The notes under the pieces were generated by a model. The model was not told the DNA's origin, made no database searches, and saw nothing but the letters and a program-made list of their open reading frames with translations. A stretch of DNA of 22,959 bases from the IMG/VR virus record IMGVR_UViG_2645728010_000003; one strand, written 5' to 3'. Positions 2,733 to 22,959 of the stretch are shown piece by piece. Source of the stretch: a virus. Taxonomy: Duplodnaviria > Heunggongvirae > Uroviricota > Caudoviricetes. The position numbers were made by a program, and so were the translations under genes. The first letter of the stretch is position 1. Every line of letters begins with the position of its first letter.

Positions 2733-2776
2733 CCCATCAACCCCGCCATTTCGGTTCAAGGTTGATGGGTTTTTTG
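2733..2776 (+). terminator. Stem-loop plus T-run downstream of ybjL (approximate coordinates)
   Basis: cccatcaacc ... ggttgatggg inverted repeat followed by tttttt; not anchored to an ORF boundary, so +/- a few nt. Confidence 0.4.
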
Positions 2777-2855
2777 TTGCCTGAAATTTATGCTCTTTAA
2801 AATCATGATGTTAGAAGCACTGTTTTTTAACGATGGCGACAAAATGGCGGCAGCG

Positions 2856-9537: not shown

Positions 9538-10344
9538 ATGAGTGTTATGAATCCAATAAGTTCTAATATATTTAATGCTGAATTTTTAAACACCCCGGCA
9601 GCGGCACTTGCCGCATGGATTTCCATTATTGGAGCTGTTATAACTTTGGTGACGATAGTTATAAGAGCACTATTCAAATATAGAAAATCTCATGATGTAA
9701 TTTTGAAAAAATCAGGAATACCTGCGTTTATATTAAATTTTTTTCTTATACGAATATCATTAAAAAGGCTGCCTACTATCACATGGGCTGAAAAATCAAT
9801 CACGGTTCTCTTTTCACTTCTTTTTTTGTGTGCAATTTATATTTTTGGTCCAGTTTTCATCCAAGCCATTAGAACCCCACCAAATAGCACATTGCTTTAT
9901 TGGATAAAGTCCGGTGAATCATTTTATATGTCAAAAAAACTGGCGACTGCAGCTACAATATTAACCACTCCTGATTGGGAAATATCAAAAGATGATTGCG
10001 AAGAGTCATCCTCTGCCAGTACAGAGAAGTACAAATCATTAACTATCGAACATAAAGAAATTCTTTGTAAACTACTAACCACTGATGAAGGGAATACTTA
10101 CATTGATGAAGAAGTCAAGAATTTCGTTAAAGACAAATTCTTTATCTATTCCTTTGCCCCAACAACCATATTTATTCTATTATGGATTTCTTTGGGTTTT
10201 ATACTGACCATTCACTATTCTAAAAAAGTTAGGAAATATATTCTGACTGAACAAAAAAATGCAATTCATTGGGCATATGGTGAATTCAAGACAGAAGGAA
10301 TCTATTCAATATATCACGAGTTAGAACGTAAGACTCACCATTAA
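9538..10344 (+). CDS. AT-rich moron: polytopic membrane protein of unknown function
   Basis: 268 aa, about 4 predicted TM helices plus a charged soluble domain; AGGTGGA Shine-Dalgarno 5 nt upstream; low GC against a GC-rich late operon; opposite strand to flanking V and S. Confidence 0.7.
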   Translation: MSVMNPISSNIFNAEFLNTPAAALAAWISIIGAVITLVTIVIRALFKYRKSHDVILKKSGIPAFILNFFLIRISLKRLPTITWAEKSITVLFSLLFLCAIYIFGPVFIQAIRTPPNSTLLYWIKSGESFYMSKKLATAATILTTPDWEISKDDCEESSSASTEKYKSLTIEHKEILCKLLTTDEGNTYIDEEVKNFVKDKFFIYSFAPTTIFILLWISLGFILTIHYSKKVRKYILTEQKNAIHWAYGEFKTEGIYSIYHELERKTHH

Positions 10345-14478: not shown

Positions 14479-15503
14479 TGGGAAAGAGTAAGAAAAACCG
14501 CGCTGCGGCGACGAACCAGATCCAGCATAAAAACCAAACTTCAGCCGAAGCATTCAGCTTCGGTGATCCCGTTCCTGTTCTGGACCGCCGCGAATTACTG
14601 GACTATGTGGAATGCGTAAAGATGGACCGCTGGTATGAGCCACCCGTAAGTTTTGACGGACTGGCGCGAACATTCCGCGCCGCCGTACACCACAGTTCAC
14701 CGATTGCAGTAAAGTGCAACATTCTGACCAGCACCTACATCCCTCACCCGCTGCTCAGCCAGCAGGCGTTTTCACGTTTTGTGCAGGACTATCTGGTTTT
14801 TGGTAACGCCTACCTGGAGAAACGCACGAACCGATTCGGTGAAGTTATCGCCCTTGAGCCTGCGCTGGCAAAATACACCCGACGCGGATTAGACCTAGAT
14901 ACCTACTGGTTTGTGCAATACGGCATGACCACGCAGCCGTATCAGTTCACGAAAGGCAGCATTTTTCATCTGATGGAACCGGACATCAACCAGGAGATCT
15001 ACGGCCTGCCCGGCTATCTTTCTGCCATCCCATCCGCCCTGCTCAACGAGTCCGCCACGCTGTTCCGCCGAAAGTATTACATTAACGGTAGTCATGCAGG
15101 CTTCATCATGTACATGACCGATGCCGCGCAGAACCAGGAAGATGTGAACAACCTCCGCAATGCGATGAAAAGTGCCAAAGGCCCTGGCAACTTCCGCAAC
15201 CTGTTTATGTACTCGCCTAATGGTAAAAAAGACGGACTTCAGATTATCCCGTTGTCAGAAGTCACAGCGAAGGATGAGTTTCTGAATATCAAGAACGTGA
15301 GCCGTGATGACATGATGGCGGCACACCGCGTGCCGCCGCAAATGATGGGAATTATGCCTAATAATGTCGGGGGGTTTGGGGATGTGGAGAAGGCTAGCAA
15401 GGTATTCGTAAGAAACGAATTGATGCCCCTGCAGAAACGATTGCAGGAACTAAATAACTGGTTGGACGAAGAAGTGCTCAATTTTTCAACCTATGAGCTT
15501 TAG
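14475..15503 (+). CDS. Q: Portal protein (gpQ-like)
   Basis: 342 aa; gpQ-like sequence; overlaps the P stop by 4 nt. Confidence 0.92.
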   Translation: MMGKSKKNRAAATNQIQHKNQTSAEAFSFGDPVPVLDRRELLDYVECVKMDRWYEPPVSFDGLARTFRAAVHHSSPIAVKCNILTSTYIPHPLLSQQAFSRFVQDYLVFGNAYLEKRTNRFGEVIALEPALAKYTRRGLDLDTYWFVQYGMTTQPYQFTKGSIFHLMEPDINQEIYGLPGYLSAIPSALLNESATLFRRKYYINGSHAGFIMYMTDAAQNQEDVNNLRNAMKSAKGPGNFRNLFMYSPNGKKDGLQIIPLSEVTAKDEFLNIKNVSRDDMMAAHRVPPQMMGIMPNNVGGFGDVEKASKVFVRNELMPLQKRLQELNNWLDEEVLNFSTYEL

Positions 15504-15511
15504 TTTTAAAA

Positions 15512-15531
15512 CGAAGACCATTAGGTCTTCG
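15512..15531. terminator. Bidirectional hairpin shared by convergent Q and retron RT
   Basis: cgaagacc-atta-ggtcttcg with T-rich flanks on both strands; the RT stop codon lies in the loop. Confidence 0.6.
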
Positions 15532-16483
15532 CTTTATTTAAAGGGTTCTTTCCATATTTTTTTTCTAATTTGCTAATATAAGTTATTAATCTCCTATGGC
15601 TTTTTGAATCCACACTTAAAATAAATGACAACCATCCCCTAACGTGTTCTATCTCAGAAGACTTACCGCAAAATATATGATGTATCTTTGCTCTAATTTC
15701 TTTATATTTTTCTCTACCTATCCCAACTTTCTCTTGTGAAATAACTAAACCTGTAACTTTCCTCTGACTACGAGGCCCACTAATACAAGTTTTTTTTGAG
15801 TTAATAACCAATCCTTCACTTGGGATTATAGAAAATAAAAAATCACGTGCTTTAACAACCTTTTTCATAGACTGTGCAGATAAGGTGAGATCATCGGCAT
15901 ATCTCGTATATATCAAGCCCCGACTACCTGCATAACCCTGAATACGATAATCAAGTTTAGAACATATTAGATTAGCTAATTTAGGTGATGATGGAGCACC
16001 TTGTGGTAGCAGATTTTTATAACAACATATTTTTGTCAAAACTGAAGATATTAGTCGATTATAACCAAGAGAATGGAACACTCCAAAAACTTTGTTAGCA
16101 GTTAAACTTGGGAAAAAATCCTCCAAATCAATATTCAGTATAAAGTTTGCCCCAATATGCGGGGTAGCATTATTCAAAATAGATTGGTGCTTTTCAAATC
16201 CAATAGAAAAAGGAGATGACGACAGTTTATCTAAAATGTTACGTAGAACCCATCCTTGTAAGGCTTTAAGTTCTCGAGAAGGTTGGTAAATGGTTCTCAT
16301 TCTCTTCTCTGGGCCTTTCTTTTCTACAGTGTAGATCCTATAGCGAAAATCAGCTGTATAGATTAACAACCGAAGTGTTTCAACAGATATGCGAGTCGCC
16401 TTAGACATGTCATGCAAATTGTTCATGACAGGTAGGCCGAGATTTCTCAATCTAAAAGTGTTCAAATATTCAGCGGATTTCAT
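15521..16483 (-). CDS. ret: Retron reverse transcriptase (Ec86/Eco1-type)
   Basis: 320 aa; RT motifs including LPQGAPSSP and YTRYADDLTLS (YADD box); directly downstream of the msr-msd locus; matches my memory of the Ec86 RT. Confidence 0.95.
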   Translation of the reverse strand: MKSAEYLNTFRLRNLGLPVMNNLHDMSKATRISVETLRLLIYTADFRYRIYTVEKKGPEKRMRTIYQPSRELKALQGWVLRNILDKLSSSPFSIGFEKHQSILNNATPHIGANFILNIDLEDFFPSLTANKVFGVFHSLGYNRLISSVLTKICCYKNLLPQGAPSSPKLANLICSKLDYRIQGYAGSRGLIYTRYADDLTLSAQSMKKVVKARDFLFSIIPSEGLVINSKKTCISGPRSQRKVTGLVISQEKVGIGREKYKEIRAKIHHIFCGKSSEIEHVRGWLSFILSVDSKSHRRLITYISKLEKKYGKNPLNKAKT

Positions 16484-16489
16484 GAAAGT

Positions 16490-16658
16490 TGCGCACCCTT
16501 ACGTCAGAAAAAACGGGTTTCCTGGTTGGCTCGGAGAGCATCAGGCGATGCTCTCCGTTCCAACAAGGAAAACAGACAGTAACTCAGATTCAATGCAGGA
16601 TGCCGAAACAACATCCAGAGGTTGACCTTAATGATAAACCTCTCGCTAAGGGTGCGCA
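16490..16658 (-). ncRNA. msr-msd: Retron msr-msd non-coding RNA (msDNA template)
   Basis: Flanked by 12-bp inverted repeats a2 (16490-16501, TGCGCACCCTTA) and a1 (16647-16658); internal perfect 10-bp hairpin at 16533-16556; minus-strand sequence matches what I recall of Ec86 msr/msd. Confidence 0.9.
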
Positions 16659-17569
16659 TACGGAATCTTATCATAGTTAAATGTTGATTTTCTACGGTTT
16701 TCAAAATTCATAATCTCAAGCCGCAATCGGTCAAGTGTCTTTCTATCAAAGACGCTCCTAACATAGCTAGCCCCCAAAGCAGTGACCTGATAACCATCAG
16801 TCATTTGAAGTATTTTTCGTTCATTTATTAGACGAGAAACAACGGATCTAACAATAATTTTAGATAAAACATCATCTTGCTTTATCGCTTTAAAAGCTAG
16901 TTCACACAGTGTGCGGTAGTTGACACTATCCAGTAAATAGATACAAGGCAATAGAAACCGCTCTGCGTATAATATATTTCCAATATCTTTTGATACTTTA
17001 TTTTCTTTCCTAACCTTCTTAATAGATGCCATTAATTTTTTATATAATCGTAATTTTCTGGCAACATCAATAGATGAATCACACATTTCTTTTAGTTCAT
17101 TTGAACTACAACGCAAAACAGATTTTGAATTAAACTTACGCAACAGGCGAACAGGACCATAGTTAATAAAGCTACGTTTTGATTTAAATTTTGCATCTTG
17201 AATGCAAATCAACTTTCTCCTTAAGTTTTCATTATTAGAGAACGCACCAAGCTCTGTGAAAGACCCCGGACTTTCAGGAAATAAAATTATTACATCGACA
17301 GCTTCAGCCAGAATATTTTCTAAACTTAAAAGGCTATGCTGCCCTTGACCAGCCAAAAGATCATCAAATAGATCTTCTGGATAAAATATATCAACATCAC
17401 TGAACTTTGCTAAAAATTGTGATAATTGATGACGCCAAGATTGATGATTAGCAACGTCACCACCACATAGAAAAATGGTTATTTTAATATTAGCTCCTCG
17501 ATAGAAGCCTTTCTTTGTGAGATGTCCTATAAGCTGTTGTTGCTGCTCATCGGTAAATTTTTTATTCAT
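16646..17569 (-). CDS. Retron effector, nucleoside 2-deoxyribosyltransferase-like N-terminal domain plus C-terminal domain
   Basis: 307 aa directly upstream of msr; Rossmann-like IFLCGG ... ILFPESPGSFTELG pattern; stop codon overlaps a1; GGGGAG RBS. Confidence 0.8.
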   Translation of the reverse strand: MNKKFTDEQQQQLIGHLTKKGFYRGANIKITIFLCGGDVANHQSWRHQLSQFLAKFSDVDIFYPEDLFDDLLAGQGQHSLLSLENILAEAVDVIILFPESPGSFTELGAFSNNENLRRKLICIQDAKFKSKRSFINYGPVRLLRKFNSKSVLRCSSNELKEMCDSSIDVARKLRLYKKLMASIKKVRKENKVSKDIGNILYAERFLLPCIYLLDSVNYRTLCELAFKAIKQDDVLSKIIVRSVVSRLINERKILQMTDGYQVTALGASYVRSVFDRKTLDRLRLEIMNFENRRKSTFNYDKIPYAHP

Positions 17570-17642
17570 AATCTCCCCGCTTTTTTTTCTACTTTATACA
17601 TCAAGTTATGAATAGATCCAATCTCCATACCACATGGCGCGC

Positions 17643-17662
17643 GCTCGTATCCCCGCCACGCC
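17643..17662 (-). other. cos-like remnant (13 of 19 nt of the remembered 186 cohesive end)
   Basis: Minus strand reads GGCGTGGCGGGGATACGAGC; the first 13 nt equal the 186 cos start as I remember it (GGCGTGGCGGGGAAAGCAT). Confidence 0.35.
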
Positions 17663-17684
17663 TGCCCGCTTTATGCAGTGGTTT

Positions 17685-17786
17685 TCATGCACATGCATAA
17701 CATGAGCAAAAGCCCGCCAGTTCTGGCGGATCTGAGCAAAGACGATCCTCAATCGATCATGCGATTTCATGCAGCATAGTCATGCA
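17685..17786. repeat. Cluster of five to six (T)CATGCA motifs
   Basis: Copies at about 17685, 17692, 17757, 17767 and 17780, plus variants; function unknown. Confidence 0.35.
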
Positions 17787-18041
17787 CTGTCAAGGAAGTG
17801 AAAATCCGTATCTGAATGGCCACTTGAAAAACGGATCATACGGGTTTACAAAGATGAATGTTCGCTGTGAACGGGAAGCGGAAGTTAACTTTCAGATAAC
17901 ATAATCCATATGCACGAGAACCTCTAAAATAGAATGGGACACCTAAGCGGGGTACTTACAACGATTCTTTCCATATTCACAGTTAACACTCTGTTTGGCG
18001 TATTTTTATTCAAATAGCAAACACCAATAAAAGGAGTTTCC

Positions 18042-18377
18042 ATGAACAATATTCCCCCTATACCACAGTTAGGAATTTATGTCTCAAAAATCGATCCCAC
18101 CCTACGTATCACTGTAACCGATGTTGATATTGTTGATGGTGAGGATGATTCTCCTGATGATGAATTGTTTTATTTAGTCCACTGGATCGAGGGGGAAGAT
18201 GAAAGTGATATGACAGCAATGGGATTTGAGCTAGACCCAGTAGAGTGGCAGGCTTTCGTTGAATCTGAGCAATTAGTGTTTGAGCGTGATCCGTACATGG
18301 ATTCAATCCCCGAAAATTCAAACTTGGCAAAGATTCGGGATTTTCTCATGAAGACTAAACAGAATGATCATTCGTAA
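18042..18377 (+). CDS. Strongly acidic small protein of unknown function
   Basis: 111 aa with 26 Asp/Glu against 7 Lys/Arg; AAGGAG RBS 6 nt upstream; only + strand gene in the A-to-Q interval. Confidence 0.6.
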   Translation: MNNIPPIPQLGIYVSKIDPTLRITVTDVDIVDGEDDSPDDELFYLVHWIEGEDESDMTAMGFELDPVEWQAFVESEQLVFERDPYMDSIPENSNLAKIRDFLMKTKQNDHS

Positions 18378-18569
18378 GTGTAAGCATCCATCAGGAAAAT
18401 GGTTTTGTAAGTGAATCATCAACTTTTAGAGAGTCTCAGACACTCCCACTTCTGCTTCTGACACAAAGCGGACGATCACTTATCAAAATAACCGCCCACC
18501 TTACGCCTTATTTCACTCATTGCCCAAACTAGCCCCCATCAGAATGAATCCTCCTGGGGGCAACATTTC

Positions 18570-18803
18570 TTAATGCAGCCAGCTGTCGTCCTCCCACACC
18601 TTCTGCATAATTTTCATCACTTGTTTTCTTTCTTCATCCAGTTGCAGTCCGGTTAGTTCCACACCGTTAGAGCTACCTTTGCGAATGCGAATTACCGTTT
18701 TGGGATACAGGGGGCGCAGATTGCGGTAAAGCTCGGATTCAAGGGCGTCCAGGGTAGACTGGCTAATCTTCTGCTCTTTATCGATCATTATTTCAATGCG
18801 CAT
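18570..18803 (-). CDS. DinI-family protein (Tum C-terminal-like)
   Basis: 77 aa from the internal Met with GAGGTGA RBS; MRIEIMIDKE ... LDALESEL ... QKVWEDDSW resembles DinI. Confidence 0.7.
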   Translation of the reverse strand: MRIEIMIDKEQKISQSTLDALESELYRNLRPLYPKTVIRIRKGSSNGVELTGLQLDEERKQVMKIMQKVWEDDSWLH

Positions 18804-18813
18804 AAAAGTCACC

Positions 18814-19002
18814 TCAGCTGATGACATCCATTGAGCGGTTGTATTCGTGGCTTCTGATTTTTGCCATGAGTTCATCAGTCAATTCAGAAACCCACTGCAG
18901 AGCCAGCCCCTTCTCTTCATCACTACACTCACTAGCCGCTACAAGCTTAAGAAAAAAATCAATGCGCTGGAGCTTCAAAGACTCCAAAAAATAGTCCTGC
19001 AT
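18814..19002 (-). CDS. Small ORF upstream of the DinI-like gene (possible Tum N-terminal part)
   Basis: 62 aa; strong AGGAGG RBS 4 nt upstream; downstream of the LexA box. Confidence 0.5.
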   Translation of the reverse strand: MQDYFLESLKLQRIDFFLKLVAASECSDEEKGLALQWVSELTDELMAKIRSHEYNRSMDVIS

Positions 19003-19042
19003 CTTTCCTCCTATGACACCAAAACAATACTGTATACATAAC

Positions 19043-19062
19043 CACTGTTTATATTTACAGTA
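19043..19062. promoter_or_regulatory. LexA (SOS) box, CTGT-N8-ACAG
   Basis: cACTGTttatatttACAGta overlapping an AT-rich -10-like region about 40 nt upstream of the 62-aa ORF. Confidence 0.6.
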
Positions 19063-19154
19063 TATAATAATCTTACTGATGTAAAACGTTTTTTTACGTT
19101 CATCGGCCTGATATGCCTGGTATTATTAAGAGCACGAATTGTCAACCCGCGTAA

Positions 19155-20606
19155 TTAATACAGGTTCCGCCACTTATCATCTTCCTTCAGACGCTGGTTC
19201 CGATAGAAGATACGCAGGCCTGCTCCTGACGGAATACTGCCGCCGCGAAGGAGCAAATCGACTTCTTTCTCGCTGCCATCAAATCCCCTGGACTTCAGTT
19301 CATAGACGAGCTGCTGTCGCTGATGGTCTGTAATTCGCTGTTTGTAGTCTTTACGCCGTTTCGGTTTCACCTGGCGTAACCTTGCAGCCAGTTCCCGGCG
19401 CTCTTTTTTGCTCATACTGTGCAGGTAATTGTGCAACTCCTTGTCATTCATACGGGTAATATCCGTTCTGGAGTCCCCATCAGCTGATTTGTCTTTCCCT
19501 TGTTGGTTCAAATTTTCAGCAAGGGGACAGTTATTGCCACGAGTCCAAGGGGCGCAAGCGCCCTGGTCGGCTGCCGCCTCCTGAACGTCAACGGCCTTAC
19601 GAACCATTTTCCACTTCACCGCATGAGTGCAGATCTTGCCCTCTGCAATGGGTGACCAGATGCCATAAATACGAATACCGTGATCGCCATATGCGGTCGG
19701 TTCTTCGTTGATTTCATAAGCAGTTCTGATGAGGTGATATTTGCGGGGAACCAGTACGCCGCCCTGCTTCATGATGTAGGTGGCAAAACAACCAGCATCA
19801 GCAGCAGCCAGGATTGCATCAAGACGCGGGTTATCCAGTACCGGCGCACCTGCTTTTTTGTCACCCTGTTGCCTTGCCGCCTGACCAGCCAGCAATCGCA
19901 GTTCACGGTAAGCCTGACGCCCCGGAATGCCAAAGAAGCGGAATTGCTGAACACGATGCAGAGACGCCCAGGCATTAACGTATTCAGCGTTATCACGCAG
20001 GGATTTACCCGTTTCCTTGCTGATCTCCCCAGCCAGACCACGCCCGTCAATGTTCTTACTGATGTATTTCGCGATATAGCTTGTTGGCGTACCTTTGCGC
20101 GGGTTTATCAGCTCAGACTTAAAGCGTGGTCCCGTGTTATTGCCCAGCTCCTCGCGGTCTTCACGGATGGCAAACTTACGCAGTAATGCAGTGATGGCGC
20201 GGCGGTCTTTTTTACGCATGAAACACATGAGATGCCAGTGCACAGTACCGTCATGATGCGGCTCAGCTACCGCACCTGCAGCAACACGCCCGATCTCTGC
20301 GGTTGCACTCATGACGTAATGTGGCAGTTTCTCTTTTGCCACCTCATTAATCGGTACGCATGGCAGGCAGTGAATCTGAGCCAGAAAACCATCTACCAGC
20401 GTTGAATCTTCAGTCAGATCGGTAAGCAGCCAGATTTCTGGTGCGGTTAATAAATGAGGTTGCGCTGGGTTCAACTTGTTCCGCAGAATCTGCACATTCA
20501 TGCCAGCACGTTCTGCCAGTTGCACCAGGTTGTGGCGCAATGCGAATGCACGACAGGCTTCATCAAAATGTGGATGTTTGGAAACTTGGTAATCAAACAT
20601 GGTCAA
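19155..20606 (-). CDS. A: Chimeric ORF: CII-like N-terminus fused to a rolling-circle initiator (gpA-like) C-terminal part; probably a deletion product
   Basis: First ~115 aa resemble phage regulatory protein CII ([18 protein letters not shown] ... [24 protein letters not shown]); the rest carries HUH-like HWH and YIAKYISK tyrosine motifs; 483 aa, well short of an intact gpA. Confidence 0.75.
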
Positions 20607-20632
20607 TGCCTCTGATGTATTTCAGAATCGAA

Positions 20633-20854
20633 CTAATTAAGGTTTAGATTGCATTCTGAAAGCGCATCAACGGTCATTGCTGCTATGTTGATCATCACTT
20701 TTTCGCGTTTTTTATCTTTGCGCAGTCGGTGACGGATAAGGCGTCCATCAGCCAACATGTCATTGATGGTATCGATGGATAGCCCTGTCAGCTCGCTATA
20801 GCGTTCAATAGTCACATGAGGGGTGGTAAGAGTGATTGAAATGTTAGGTCTCAT
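20633..20854 (-). CDS. Apl/Cox-like small DNA-binding protein, first gene of the early operon
   Basis: 73 aa, HTH-like segment ([19 protein letters not shown]), divergent from the repressor gene. Confidence 0.5.
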
Positions 20855-20973
20855 GATGCAACATTCCTCGTTTAATGATGATTAATCAGGACGAATACGG
20901 ATCGTTTGTATTTTGTGAACACCATAAACATACGATCGCACAGTGAAATCGTCAAGATAAAAGTTCACTTGGA
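20855..20973. promoter_or_regulatory. Lysis/lysogeny switch intergenic region
   Basis: 119-bp AT-rich spacer between the divergent Apl-like and CI genes, with partial dyads around GATCG. Confidence 0.4.
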
Positions 20974-21549
20974 GTGACCATGAATTTGGAGAAAGGCGGA
21001 CGAGGCGCTATAGAGCGCATGGTAGAAGCTTATGGATTCAAGACTCGACAGGCGTTGTGCGATCATTTAGGAATCTCTAAAAGTACACTCGCCACACGCT
21101 ACATGCGTGACTCATTCCCAGCAGAATGGGTAATCCAGTGCGCCCTTGAAACAGGCACCTCGCTTAATTGGCTCACAACCGGGCATGGTTCAAAGCAAAC
21201 TTCAGGTAATACAAATACTATGGAAGTTGCTAAATATGTATTATCTGATGGGGCCTTGTGTGAAGACGGTTTTTATATTTTCGATAGAGAATTTCTACCG
21301 TCGGCATTCAAGAATCTTTTTGTAATCACAGATAATAATTCTGAATTTATTTGTGATAAGGAATTTGATGATATACGTGATGGTAAATGGGTAATAAGTA
21401 TTGATGGCGAAATAACGATCCGTGACATTACTCGTTTACCCGGTGGAAGAATCTTCGTCGAGGGTGGAAATAGAGCCTTCGAGTGCAAGATAGAAGATGT
21501 TGAAATAATTGGGAAAATTATAAGTTTAACAATTAAGTACGTTAGGTAA
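20974..21549 (+). CDS. cI: 186-type CI immunity repressor
   Basis: 191 aa; N-terminal HTH (LGISKSTLATRYMRD ... ALETGTSLNWLTTG) plus C-terminal domain; size and layout as in 186 CI. Confidence 0.7.
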   Translation: MTMNLEKGGRGAIERMVEAYGFKTRQALCDHLGISKSTLATRYMRDSFPAEWVIQCALETGTSLNWLTTGHGSKQTSGNTNTMEVAKYVLSDGALCEDGFYIFDREFLPSAFKNLFVITDNNSEFICDKEFDDIRDGKWVISIDGEITIRDITRLPGGRIFVEGGNRAFECKIEDVEIIGKIISLTIKYVR

Positions 21550-21564
21550 TACCGGGAGGAAACT

Positions 21565-21756
21565 ATGCTTGGTAAGGTATTTTTTGTGGTTTTATCATGC
21601 TCTTTGTTATTAAACCCACTAACTACCTATGCTAAAAATTATCCTTGTTCTGGGAAAAAGGGAGGTGTCTCTCACTGTACCTCCGATGGAAAGTTCGTTT
21701 GCAATGATGGAACTATTAGTAAATCAAAAAAAATCTGTACTAAAAACTCGCGATAA
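21565..21756 (+). CDS. Small secreted or lipid-anchored Cys-rich peptide
   Basis: 63 aa; N-terminal signal sequence; mature part has four Cys and many Lys; GGGAGG RBS; AT-rich. Confidence 0.5.
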
Positions 21757-21942
21757 ATTTTGCTTTTATATCTGCGCCTAATATAACAATGAGCCGCAGG
21801 CTAACCGCAAAAGTCACATACTCACATAGCAAAAAATAGCTAACTTCATTATGGCTTCAGTGAGATGTATGGTCGCAGGATTTCATACATTGACACTGGT
21901 TATACATACAGTAAAAATGCTCTCTACTGGAGGGCATTTTTT

Positions 21943-22959
21943 ATGGCAGTACGAAAACTCACCACAGGAAAATGGCTTTGCGAATGTTACCCCGCCGGAC
22001 GTAGTGGACGTCGTGTGCGTAAACAATTCGCCACCAAAGGCGAAGCTCTGGCTTTTGAGCGTCACACGATGGAAGAAACCGAAGCAAAGCCCTGGCTGGG
22101 CGAATCAGTGGATCGTCGGACATTGAAAGACGTGATTGAGCTATGGTTCAAACTACATGGTAAATCTCTGACAGCTGGGCAGCATGTCTATGACAAACTG
22201 CTGTTGATGGTTGACGCTCTGGGCAATCCCCTTGCAACTGATCTAACCTCTAAAATGTTTGCCCACTATCGAGATAAACGCCTGACAGGTGAGATCTACT
22301 TCAGCGAGAAATGGAAGAAAGGAGCAAGCCCGGTCACCATTAACCTGGAGCAAAGCTATCTAAGTAGTGTTTTTAGCGAACTATCCCGCCTGGGCGAATG
22401 GTCGTATCCGAACCCACTGGAGAACATGCGAAAATTCACCATCGCAGAAAAAGAGATGGCATGGCTTACCCATGAGCAGATTGTTGAACTGCTGGCTGAT
22501 TGCAAACGTCAGGACCCAATTCTGGCACTGGTAGTCAAGATATGCCTAAGCACAGGCGCACGCTGGCGAGAAGCAATAAATCTTACCCGCTCGCAAGTGA
22601 CCAAATACCGAATTACCTTTGTAAGAACGAAGGGGAAGAAAAACAGAAGCATCCCTATCAGTAAAGAGCTTTACGAAGAGATCATGGCGCTTGATGGGTT
22701 CAATTTCTTTACAGACTGCTATTTTCAATTTTTATCCGTGATGGAAAAAACGTCTATCGTGCTCCCTCGCGGTCAACTGACACACGTTCTGCGCCATACG
22801 TTTGCGGCGCACTTCATGATGTCGGGTGGAAATATCCTTGCTTTGCAAAAAATCCTCGGACATCACGATATAAAAATGACTATGCGCTATGCCCATTTAG
22901 CACCCGATCATCTTGAGACGGCTCTGAGATTCAACCCCCTCGCAACGCTAGAAGTGTGA
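21943..22959 (+). CDS. int: Tyrosine integrase (P2 Int-like)
   Basis: 338 aa from the internal Met (MAVRKLTTGKW...); conserved C-terminus with R ... HxLRHT ... Y (LSTGARWREA, HVLRHTFAAHF, MRYAHLAPDHL) similar to P2 Int; stop at 22957-22959. Confidence 0.9.
   Translation: MAVRKLTTGKWLCECYPAGRSGRRVRKQFATKGEALAFERHTMEETEAKPWLGESVDRRTLKDVIELWFKLHGKSLTAGQHVYDKLLLMVDALGNPLATDLTSKMFAHYRDKRLTGEIYFSEKWKKGASPVTINLEQSYLSSVFSELSRLGEWSYPNPLENMRKFTIAEKEMAWLTHEQIVELLADCKRQDPILALVVKICLSTGARWREAINLTRSQVTKYRITFVRTKGKKNRSIPISKELYEEIMALDGFNFFTDCYFQFLSVMEKTSIVLPRGQLTHVLRHTFAAHFMMSGGNILALQKILGHHDIKMTMRYAHLAPDHLETALRFNPLATLEV

Follow-up and report, generated by a model that had tools for sequence, protein, structure and literature searches.

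Tum of phage 186 is an antirepressor fused to a DinI-like half and, as cited in PMC3121763, it is the only Tum protein whose biochemistry is known. The same paper describes a tum gene split by a stop codon in Fels-2 and PSP3, where the upstream gene is the antirepressor (the PSP3 part is a relayed personal communication), and cites a lethal lexA-null phenotype that is ascribed to the Fels-2 prophage. The locus described here covers positions 18570-19062 of a window of 22,959 nucleotides (the whole stretch of DNA that was analysed, IMG/VR record IMGVR_UViG_2645728010_000003), which is a defective P2-family prophage of Escherichia coli B/BL21(DE3) that also carries retron Ec86. The locus is classified as a split tumA/tumB SOS operon of the PSP3/Fels-2 type, a regulatory module already known from 186-like phages; in this strain it had not yet been given a name. 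Taken as a whole, it is very probably the tumA-tumB operon, under SOS control, of a P2/186-family phage of Fels-2/DuoHS type, kept unchanged in the defective BL21 prophage. The first-pass annotation had described a LexA-boxed unit of two open reading frames (ORFs), the second of them DinI-like, with a 186-type CI about 2 kb away, and all of this is borne out by the scores given below. It had also equated the unit with the 186 tum arrangement, which holds for the Tum-type operon but not for the two-ORF form, which is that of PSP3 and Fels-2, while the 186 tum encodes one fused protein of 146 amino acids (aa).

Prophage DuoHS of E. coli HS is complete and inducible and occupies the same rcdA-ybjL site (PMC12055606). 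An in-frame deletion of its gene ECHS_RS04495, named 'tum', abolishes mitomycin-induced lysis and virion foci, and the lexA(Ind-) allele abolishes both likewise (PMC12055606). BL21 ECD_RS04410, which is tumA, and ECHS_RS04495 share the accession WP_001154431.1 and their sequences are identical. The two prophages also have the same TumB and Apl proteins, the same tum promoter with a double LexA box, the same cI-apl region, the same host site and the same LexA box before int. They differ in that DuoHS is a complete inducible phage and carries other cargo downstream of tumB, where BL21 has retron Ec86.

Fels-2 (STM2728/STM2726.1) resembles BL21 in TumA (97% identical), TumB (100%), the double LexA operator and the position of the operon after gene A, while its CI is only 40% identical, its Apl is unrelated (tblastn) and its int lies directly after cI. 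PSP3 also has the operon split into two genes and placed after gene A, with a LexA box at its promoter and a DinI homologue as the downstream gene, but it has a single near-consensus LexA box, and its TumA resembles that of BL21 at the profile level only (phrog_1993, E 0.002; hhalign weak). In 186, a LexA box also covers the -10 of a promoter downstream of gene A, and the DinI-like C-terminal half and the 186-type CI target are shared with BL21, whereas the fused 146-aa Tum with internal starts, the single LexA box, orf97 downstream and a CI that is 32% identical set it apart. The LexA-repressed operons of the Gifsy and Fels-1 prophages, which encode GfoA, GftA and FsoA, are similar to tum in lying outside the immunity region and in combining a small antirepressor with a DinI homologue. 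In these operons, however, dinI comes first, the antirepressors have roughly half the length of the 146-aa Tum, and the targets are repressors of another kind, from the gfoR/gtgR group, which includes DicA and RacR.

Operator and promoter of the tum operon

On the minus strand, positions 19110-18540 contain, in order, TTTACA, 17 nt, TACTGTAAATATAAACAGTG, GTTATGTATACAGTA, AGGAGG and the ATG of a 62-aa ORF (19002-18814), which is followed by TGA, GAGGTGA, the ATG of a 77-aa ORF (18803-18570) and a GC-rich hairpin. The segment 18570-19062 is bounded exactly by the tumB stop codon and by the outer end of the LexA 20-mer. The features of the operon are as follows.

19057-19085, minus strand: putative sigma-70 tum promoter, with -35 TTTACA at 19085-19080, a 17-nt spacer and -10 TACTGT at 19062-19057
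19043-19062, minus strand: LexA box 1, TACTGTAAATATAAACAGTG, overlapping the -10 region of the tum promoter
19028-19047, plus strand: LexA box 2, TACTGTATACATAACCACTG, weaker, overlapping box 1 at a 15-bp offset
18814-19002, minus strand: tumA, 62 aa, antirepressor candidate, WP_001154431.1, annotated 'hypothetical protein', with Shine-Dalgarno AGGAGG upstream
18570-18803, minus strand: tumB, 77 aa, DinI-like, WP_001217575.1, with a Shine-Dalgarno GAGGTGA that overlaps the tumA stop codon
18532-18561, minus strand: GC-rich hairpin just past the tumB stop codon

The sequence CTGTTTATATTTACAG at 19045-19060 is the sole CTGT-N8-ACAG match in the window. This pattern alone is weak evidence, with 0.29 matches expected and at least one match in 27 of 100 shuffles. 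Because the bare pattern is not significant, a LexA matrix was built from 18 documented E. coli sites (PMC3009722 Table 4), and the heterology index (HI) values obtained with it are on the scale of this analysis and are not published HI values. Box 1 scores HI 4.3-4.5 and 23 bits and, by leave-one-out scoring, ranks above the boxes of recA, lexA, sulA, uvrB, uvrD and ruvA. None of 300 dinucleotide shuffles of the window gave a site with HI of 5.1 or lower, the median best shuffle score being 12.6, and the poor matrix score that the first-pass annotation had named as evidence against the site is not what was found. Box 1 is identical in DuoHS and Fels-2, and a ten-way alignment places a LexA box at the same position in ten relatives, from DuoHS to 186, PSP3 and ESSI-2.

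Box 2 has HI 8.2 and shares a CAGTG junction with box 1. A 47-nt query over both boxes is 85-87% identical to promoters of small colicin plasmids and of Yersinia pPCP1, where the matches sit directly upstream of the colicin R and pesticin genes. Over the 35 nt of the double box, the alignment with the promoters of colicin R (pColR) and pesticin (pPCP1) is nearly base for base, with the shared core TACTGTA-N-ATA-N-AA-N-CAGTGGTT-N-T-N-T-N-TACAGTA, and the second box of pesticin has the same CCACTG half and HI 8.8. The tum operator (19028-19062) is classed on this likeness as a colicin-type double overlapping LexA box. Two LexA dimers are reported to bind the colicin operators and to repress them very tightly (PMC2994835), and by analogy the tum operator would also be occupied by two dimers. 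Unlike the BL21 tum operator, those of colicin and pesticin drive a toxin and not a phage antirepressor. In addition, the BL21 promoter upstream of the boxes is 12 nt shorter, so that box 1 falls on the -10, whereas in those operators it comes just after the -10.

By eye, the alignment has the overlapping second box in DuoHS, Fels-2, 500465-1 and Yersinia MLG42, and in a weaker form in SEN8, while in the matrix scan, which did not cover 500465-1, a second box with HI below 10 is found only in DuoHS, Fels-2 and MLG42. ESSI2_ev129, Cronobacter ESSI-2, 186 and PSP3 have a single box, which is aligned with the downstream one. In BL21 and HS, a scan of 40-45 kb that includes the prophage and its surroundings gives no HI below 9.5 other than at the tum boxes and the int box. 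Fels-2 has only the tum operator and one weak LexA site, and in the right end of 186 (22000-30624) only the p95 box scores HI below 9.5. No LexA site below HI 10 occurs in the whole P2 genome or in the left 22.5 kb of 186.

The tum promoter is assigned because of the analogy with the annotated 186 promoter p95, whose -10 TACTGT forms the first 6 nt of its LexA box and lies 18 nt after TTCACA. An alternative -10 is TATACT (19064-19059) with a 15-nt spacer, and either choice falls under box 1. DuoHS has an identical promoter from the -35 up to and including box 1. What remains of gene A ends at 19155, and the operon begins on that same strand at about 19085, outside the immunity region; this position after gene A is common to 186, PSP3, Fels-2 and DuoHS. 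The hairpin past tumB, which has a 7-bp GC stem in the RNA fold of 18470-18580 (minus strand) and a poor U-tract, is a possible weak or partial terminator. No Rfam family reached the gathering threshold in 15000-22959.

TumA and TumB

TumA matches no Pfam or NCBIfam family, and its profile matches no PDB sequence. It matches phrog_698 (5.9e-38), phrog_8554 (1e-8) and phrog_1993, the family of PSP3 TumA (0.002), and the first 70 residues of 186 Tum match the same three families at colinear coordinates (phrog_1993 1.5e-23, phrog_8554 3e-12, phrog_698 5.9e-6). An alignment of 28 diverse TumA relatives compared with 186 Tum residues 3-44 gives an hhalign probability of 94.9% and E 4.5e-8. TumA is recognised, at the level of profiles, as a homologue of the N-terminal part of 186 Tum, the half taken to be the antirepressor by analogy with the upstream gene of the split PSP3 tum. 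A phmmer search with TumA returned 67 proteins, mostly of 50-100 aa, none of which has a DinI-like domain fused after the TumA match. The AlphaFold model of TumA is a two-helix hairpin (predicted local distance difference test, pLDDT, 88), for which Foldseek finds generic helical hairpins only, all with E above 0.8, and the fold offers no clue to the mechanism.

A TumA with 97-98% identity occurs in Fels-2 and in phages of Klebsiella, Salmonella and Escherichia that have CI proteins only 40-53% identical to that of BL21, and at least two of the phages with a near-identical TumA, Fels-2 and DuoHS, are LexA-controlled or SOS-inducible. TumA and CI do not co-vary. The CI alignment of these phages contains a nearly invariant RDSFPAEWVIQCALETG..WL.TG block, which suggests that TumA recognises a conserved CI surface, for example this block, and may act across immunity types.

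TumB matches Pfam DinI (PF06183) with E 1.2e-22 over profile positions 1-63 of 63, and PDB 1GHH, which is DinI, at 2.7e-6 over residues 1-75. It is 41% identical to residues 71-145 of 186 Tum, 78% identical to PSP3 TumB and 100% identical to Fels-2 STM2726.1. With 42.7 bits it is below the 111-bit cut-off of the chromosomal DinI equivalog NF007893, and it is assigned as a phage DinI-like paralogue and not as the chromosomal dinI. The tumA stop codon TGA lies at 18816-18814 and is followed by GAGGTGA and then by the tumB ATG at 18803, so that tumB has its own ribosome-binding site. A 101-aa ORF called mechanically (18875 to 18570) was rejected as the second gene, since the Shine-Dalgarno sequence, RefSeq and all homologues favour the start at 18803. 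The tumA-tumB coding sequences have six differences from the DuoHS copy, all synonymous.

The operon occurs at a coverage of at least 80% in 1,083 of 5,426 complete E. coli genomes (~20%), and among those listed every genome row annotates it as 'DinI-like family protein' and 'hypothetical protein'. In ESSI2_ev129 and Cronobacter ESSI-2 a tumA homologue with a single strong LexA box is followed by a convergent regulator, with no DinI-like gene. Because these ESSI2-type phages have tumA without it, the DinI-like partner is dispensable in some lineages.

The CI switch and the int promoter in the decayed prophage

By megablast, positions 15000-21900 are 100% identical over their full length to BL21(DE3), BL21, C41, C43, BLR and the NEB B strains, and in NC_012971.2 the prophage lies between ybjL and rcdA. 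RefSeq annotates a decayed P2-family prophage, in which the D/VgrG and invertase genes are partial, with a 'retron St85 family' reverse transcriptase and effector that correspond to retron Ec86/Eco1. That the prophage is defective, as the first-pass annotation had proposed, is confirmed by three losses. The block from the capsid gene to lysozyme is absent, which leaves a gap between the O scaffold gene and the lysozyme C-terminus, and the block from the tail sheath to U is absent as well. The third loss is an early stretch that runs from the cII C-terminus through the gene A N-terminus, where RefSeq has two pseudogenes, a 'replication endonuclease, missing N-terminus' beside a 'CII family, missing C-terminus'. 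Compared with E. coli HS, both lesions are one deletion of 3.36 kb (DuoHS locus L005 14986-18344) with a 12-bp overlap at the junction. It leaves ~112 codons from the start of cII joined in frame to ~371 codons from the end of gene A, and the fusion ORF has Phage_CP76 at residues 12-115 and the C-terminal part of Phage_GPA at residues 113-189 (Pfam). This lesion removes replication, and the chimera would be a product of the early lytic operon, in which it follows apl.

Protein identities place the element in the Fels-2/DuoHS lineage. Int is 35% identical to P2, 56% to 186, 54% to Fels-2 and 99% to DuoHS; Ogr is 55%, 54%, 68% and 100% identical to these in the same order, and terminase P is 63%, 64%, 97% and 99% identical. 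CI has no match in P2 and is 32% identical to 186, 40% to Fels-2 and 98% to DuoHS. The tail and packaging genes that were compared are 84-97% identical to Fels-2 and, except for the tail fibre, 94-100% identical to DuoHS. The first-pass annotation had seen 186-type immunity mixed with int, ogr and tail-fibre features of P2 type, and this hybrid (mosaic) reading is ruled out by these figures, Int being nearer to 186 than to P2 and Ogr equidistant from both.

The immunity region and the int module comprise the following features.

19155-20606, minus strand: cII'-'A in-frame fusion ORF, 483 aa, made by the 3.36-kb deletion
20633-20854, minus strand: apl/cox-like excisionase-repressor gene, which opens the early lytic operon (phrog_575, 'Cox-like excisionase and repressor', 6e-31)
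20855-20979: intergenic control region between cI and apl, the expected place of divergent lytic and lysogenic promoters and of CI operators
20980-21549, plus strand: cI, 186-type immunity repressor, presumed TumA target, 1.9 kb from the tum operon
21890-21918, plus strand: candidate LexA-repressed int promoter, with -35 TTGACA at 21890-21895 and -10 AAAAAT or TAAAAA at 21912-21918
21894-21913, plus strand: int LexA box, CACTGGTTATACATACAGTA, HI 4.4-5.0 (matrix)
21943-22959, plus strand: int, tyrosine integrase, WP_000290930.1, a RefSeq coding sequence and not a pseudogene, which ends at the window edge
2765-2791, plus strand: attachment-site core on the ogr side, ATGGGTTTTTTGTTGCCTGAAATTTAT, whose partner lies past int, ~590 bp beyond the window end

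CI matches Pfam Phage_CI_repr and Phage_CI_C, and PDB 2FJR, which is 186 CI, at 3.7e-31. It differs from DuoHS CI by three substitutions, V174I, I185V and R189K, which are conservative and located at the extreme C-terminus. The cI-apl control region is 100% identical to that of DuoHS across 156 bp, and the Apl, TumA and TumB proteins are identical to their DuoHS counterparts. Because these parts are identical or near-identical to those of a functional phage, in which deletion of tum or lexA(Ind-) blocks induction, the SOS-Tum-CI circuit is very probably still intact in the BL21 prophage and DNA damage probably still flips the repressor switch, which agrees with the suggestion of the first-pass annotation that the circuit may still work. 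The losses of BL21 lie downstream of this switch and affect replication, heads, most of the tail, holin and lysozyme.

The int box is as strong as the tum box and is missed by the CTGT-N8-ACAG pattern, its right half being CCAG. It is flanked by a perfect TTGACA and an A/T-rich -10, and the int start codon (21943) follows ~30 nt further on. TTGACA and CTG-N10-CAG are invariant in DuoHS, Klebsiella 4LV2017, vB_EcoM-813R9 and ESSI2_ev129, while the interior and the flanks vary, and the int box of ESSI2_ev129, which is 71% identical, is even nearer to the consensus. Homology with 4LV2017, KP12, vB_EcoM-813R9 and ESSI2_ev129 starts exactly at the int promoter, whatever cargo lies upstream. The box suggests that the int promoter is SOS-gated in this int module. 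P2, 186 and Fels-2 do not have the int LexA box, no LexA box is found near int in the whole Fels-2 genome, and a limited literature search found no described LexA box on a P2-family int promoter. Neither this box nor the double operator was noticed in the first-pass annotation.

The attachment-site core is a 14-bp exact repeat with an imperfect extension, present at both prophage ends in BL21 and HS. On the ogr side, it overlaps a hairpin-plus-T-run terminator of the host gene ybjL (2739-2791). Excision of the remnant triggered by the SOS response is plausible because both cores are present and apl and int look intact.

The proposed sequence of events starts in undamaged cells, where LexA on the double operator (19028-19062), over the -10, would keep the tum operon off. 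Upon DNA damage, active RecA would promote LexA self-cleavage and the operon would be transcribed, a step for which the identical DuoHS locus gives genetic support. TumA would then bind the 186-type CI and stop its operator binding, as judged from 186, the requirement for induction being taken from DuoHS, and TumB may modulate RecA filaments and the SOS signal, as expected from the DinI family and the 186 annotation. Once CI repression is lost in BL21, apl and cII'-'A would be turned on, and loss of LexA from the int box would free int simultaneously. The likely output is a flip of the switch and perhaps excision of the element. No replication, virions or lysis should follow, since the deletions have taken out gene A, the capsid genes, holin and lysozyme, and most of the tail genes.

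Several points weigh against this account. No sigma-70 promoter was called by a consensus scan of 18300-19300, and the assigned -10 TACTGT matches the consensus poorly. TumA gives no BLASTP alignment with 186 Tum or with PSP3 TumA, and phmmer with TumA against 1.84 billion representatives returned no link to 186 Tum. The support from DuoHS for Tum acting on CI is genetic, and binding of TumA to CI is inferred from 186. The three CI substitutions, as well as the level of CI expression in the remnant, may matter. A literature search, limited in reach, found no expression, LexA-binding or excision data on the BL21 copy, and the argument for excision consists of the presence of apl, int and both attachment-site cores.

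An operon that is LexA-regulated while the circuit downstream of it is dead, with TumA inactive on CI or CI not made or not needed, would be a neutral relic that yields two small SOS proteins. The heavy decay of the prophage, the three CI substitutions relative to DuoHS and the lack of BL21 data in the literature search are in line with such a relic. However, the substitutions are conservative and confined to the extreme C-terminus, and a working phage has the same control region, tumA, tumB and apl. Besides, near-identical TumA proteins are paired elsewhere with CI proteins that are only 40-53% identical to that of BL21, and for this reason the three substitutions are unlikely to break recognition. 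A dead circuit is considered improbable.

The module could also be kept for the benefit of the host or for its action on other phages, with TumB as an extra DinI that tunes RecA during the SOS response and TumA acting in trans on the CI proteins of 186/Fels-2-type phages that enter the cell or already reside in it. The conservation of TumA at 97-98% across phages with divergent CI fits this role, as does the action of Salmonella antirepressors on non-cognate repressors, described in PMC3121763. TumB is a full-length DinI-family protein, and the tumA-tumB genes have accumulated only six, synonymous, differences from DuoHS amid heavy decay. The identity to DuoHS may, however, merely reflect recent decay, and a function for the host or in trans is compatible with a preserved phage switch and not exclusive of it; as an explanation in its own right it is very improbable. 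A chance AT-rich palindrome with ORFs that are not SOS-regulated, in favour of which stand the occurrence of the bare pattern in 27% of shuffled windows and the missing consensus promoter call, is effectively refuted by a matrix score that beats many bona fide SOS boxes and was reached in none of 300 shuffles, by conservation of the box in distant relatives and by the block of induction of the identical DuoHS locus in lexA(Ind-), and its probability is close to nil.

For the preserved SOS operon, the mechanism is already known, and the gain is mostly in annotation and practical use. The 62-aa 'hypothetical protein' can be given a name, since its sequence is that of an antirepressor whose requirement has been shown by experiment. 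BL21(DE3) and the strains derived from it are in standard use as hosts, and in them a flip of the SOS switch or excision of the Ec86/Eco1 element could have consequences for the stability of the strain and for retron work under stress or DNA damage, and the BL21 remnant is a naturally lysis-free background for the study of the Tum-CI switch. Three findings go beyond the descriptions met in the literature search, add modestly to the 186 paradigm and are cheap to test: an operator that is double and of colicin type, a LexA box in the int promoter, and TumA and CI proteins that do not co-vary. A further and rather doubtful proposal is that TumA is a broad-spectrum antirepressor, in which case the remnant would not be a mere relic and could, during the SOS response, inactivate the CI of co-resident or incoming Fels-2/186 phages and excise the retron-Ec86 element through the int box and Apl. 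If true, the host most widely used for protein expression would contain a switch that is gated by the SOS response and does not cause lysis.

Cargo slots of the element

The tumB stop codon (18572) is the exact point at which homology with DuoHS is lost, and the interval between tumB and the portal gene contains the following features in BL21.

18042-18377, plus strand: 111-aa ORF of phrog_17127, between tumB and the portal gene
16646-17569, minus strand: retron Ec86/Eco1 effector
about 16490-16640, minus strand: retron Ec86/Eco1 msr/msd region, whose retron non-coding RNA is not called by Rfam at the gathering threshold
15521-16483, minus strand: retron Ec86/Eco1 reverse transcriptase

DuoHS and Fels-2 carry other cargo between tumB and the portal gene, which marks this interval as a hotspot for cargo or defence genes. 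A stretch of 149 bp just before the retron effector gene (17637-17785) is 87% identical to a DuoHS intergenic sequence (L005 20894-21042) located before an unrelated cargo gene, and it may be a shared hotspot boundary or promoter.

The interval between cI and int seems to be a second slot for cargo, and this may be the reason for a separate int promoter. In BL21 it contains one ORF.

21565-21756, plus strand: 63-aa ORF between cI and int, with a signal-peptide-like N-terminus (NCBIfam PRK10040 family, E 4e-34)

The same slot holds a gene for a 349-aa hypothetical protein in 4LV2017 and for a 558-aa ATPase in 813R9. Another gene of the element occupies the P2 orf30 position.

9538-10344, plus strand: DUF6216 gene, between tail-completion and baseplate genes

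According to a 2026 preprint, the DUF6216 gene, the retron reverse transcriptase and the retron effector are three H-NS-bound spots of low GC content in the prophage.

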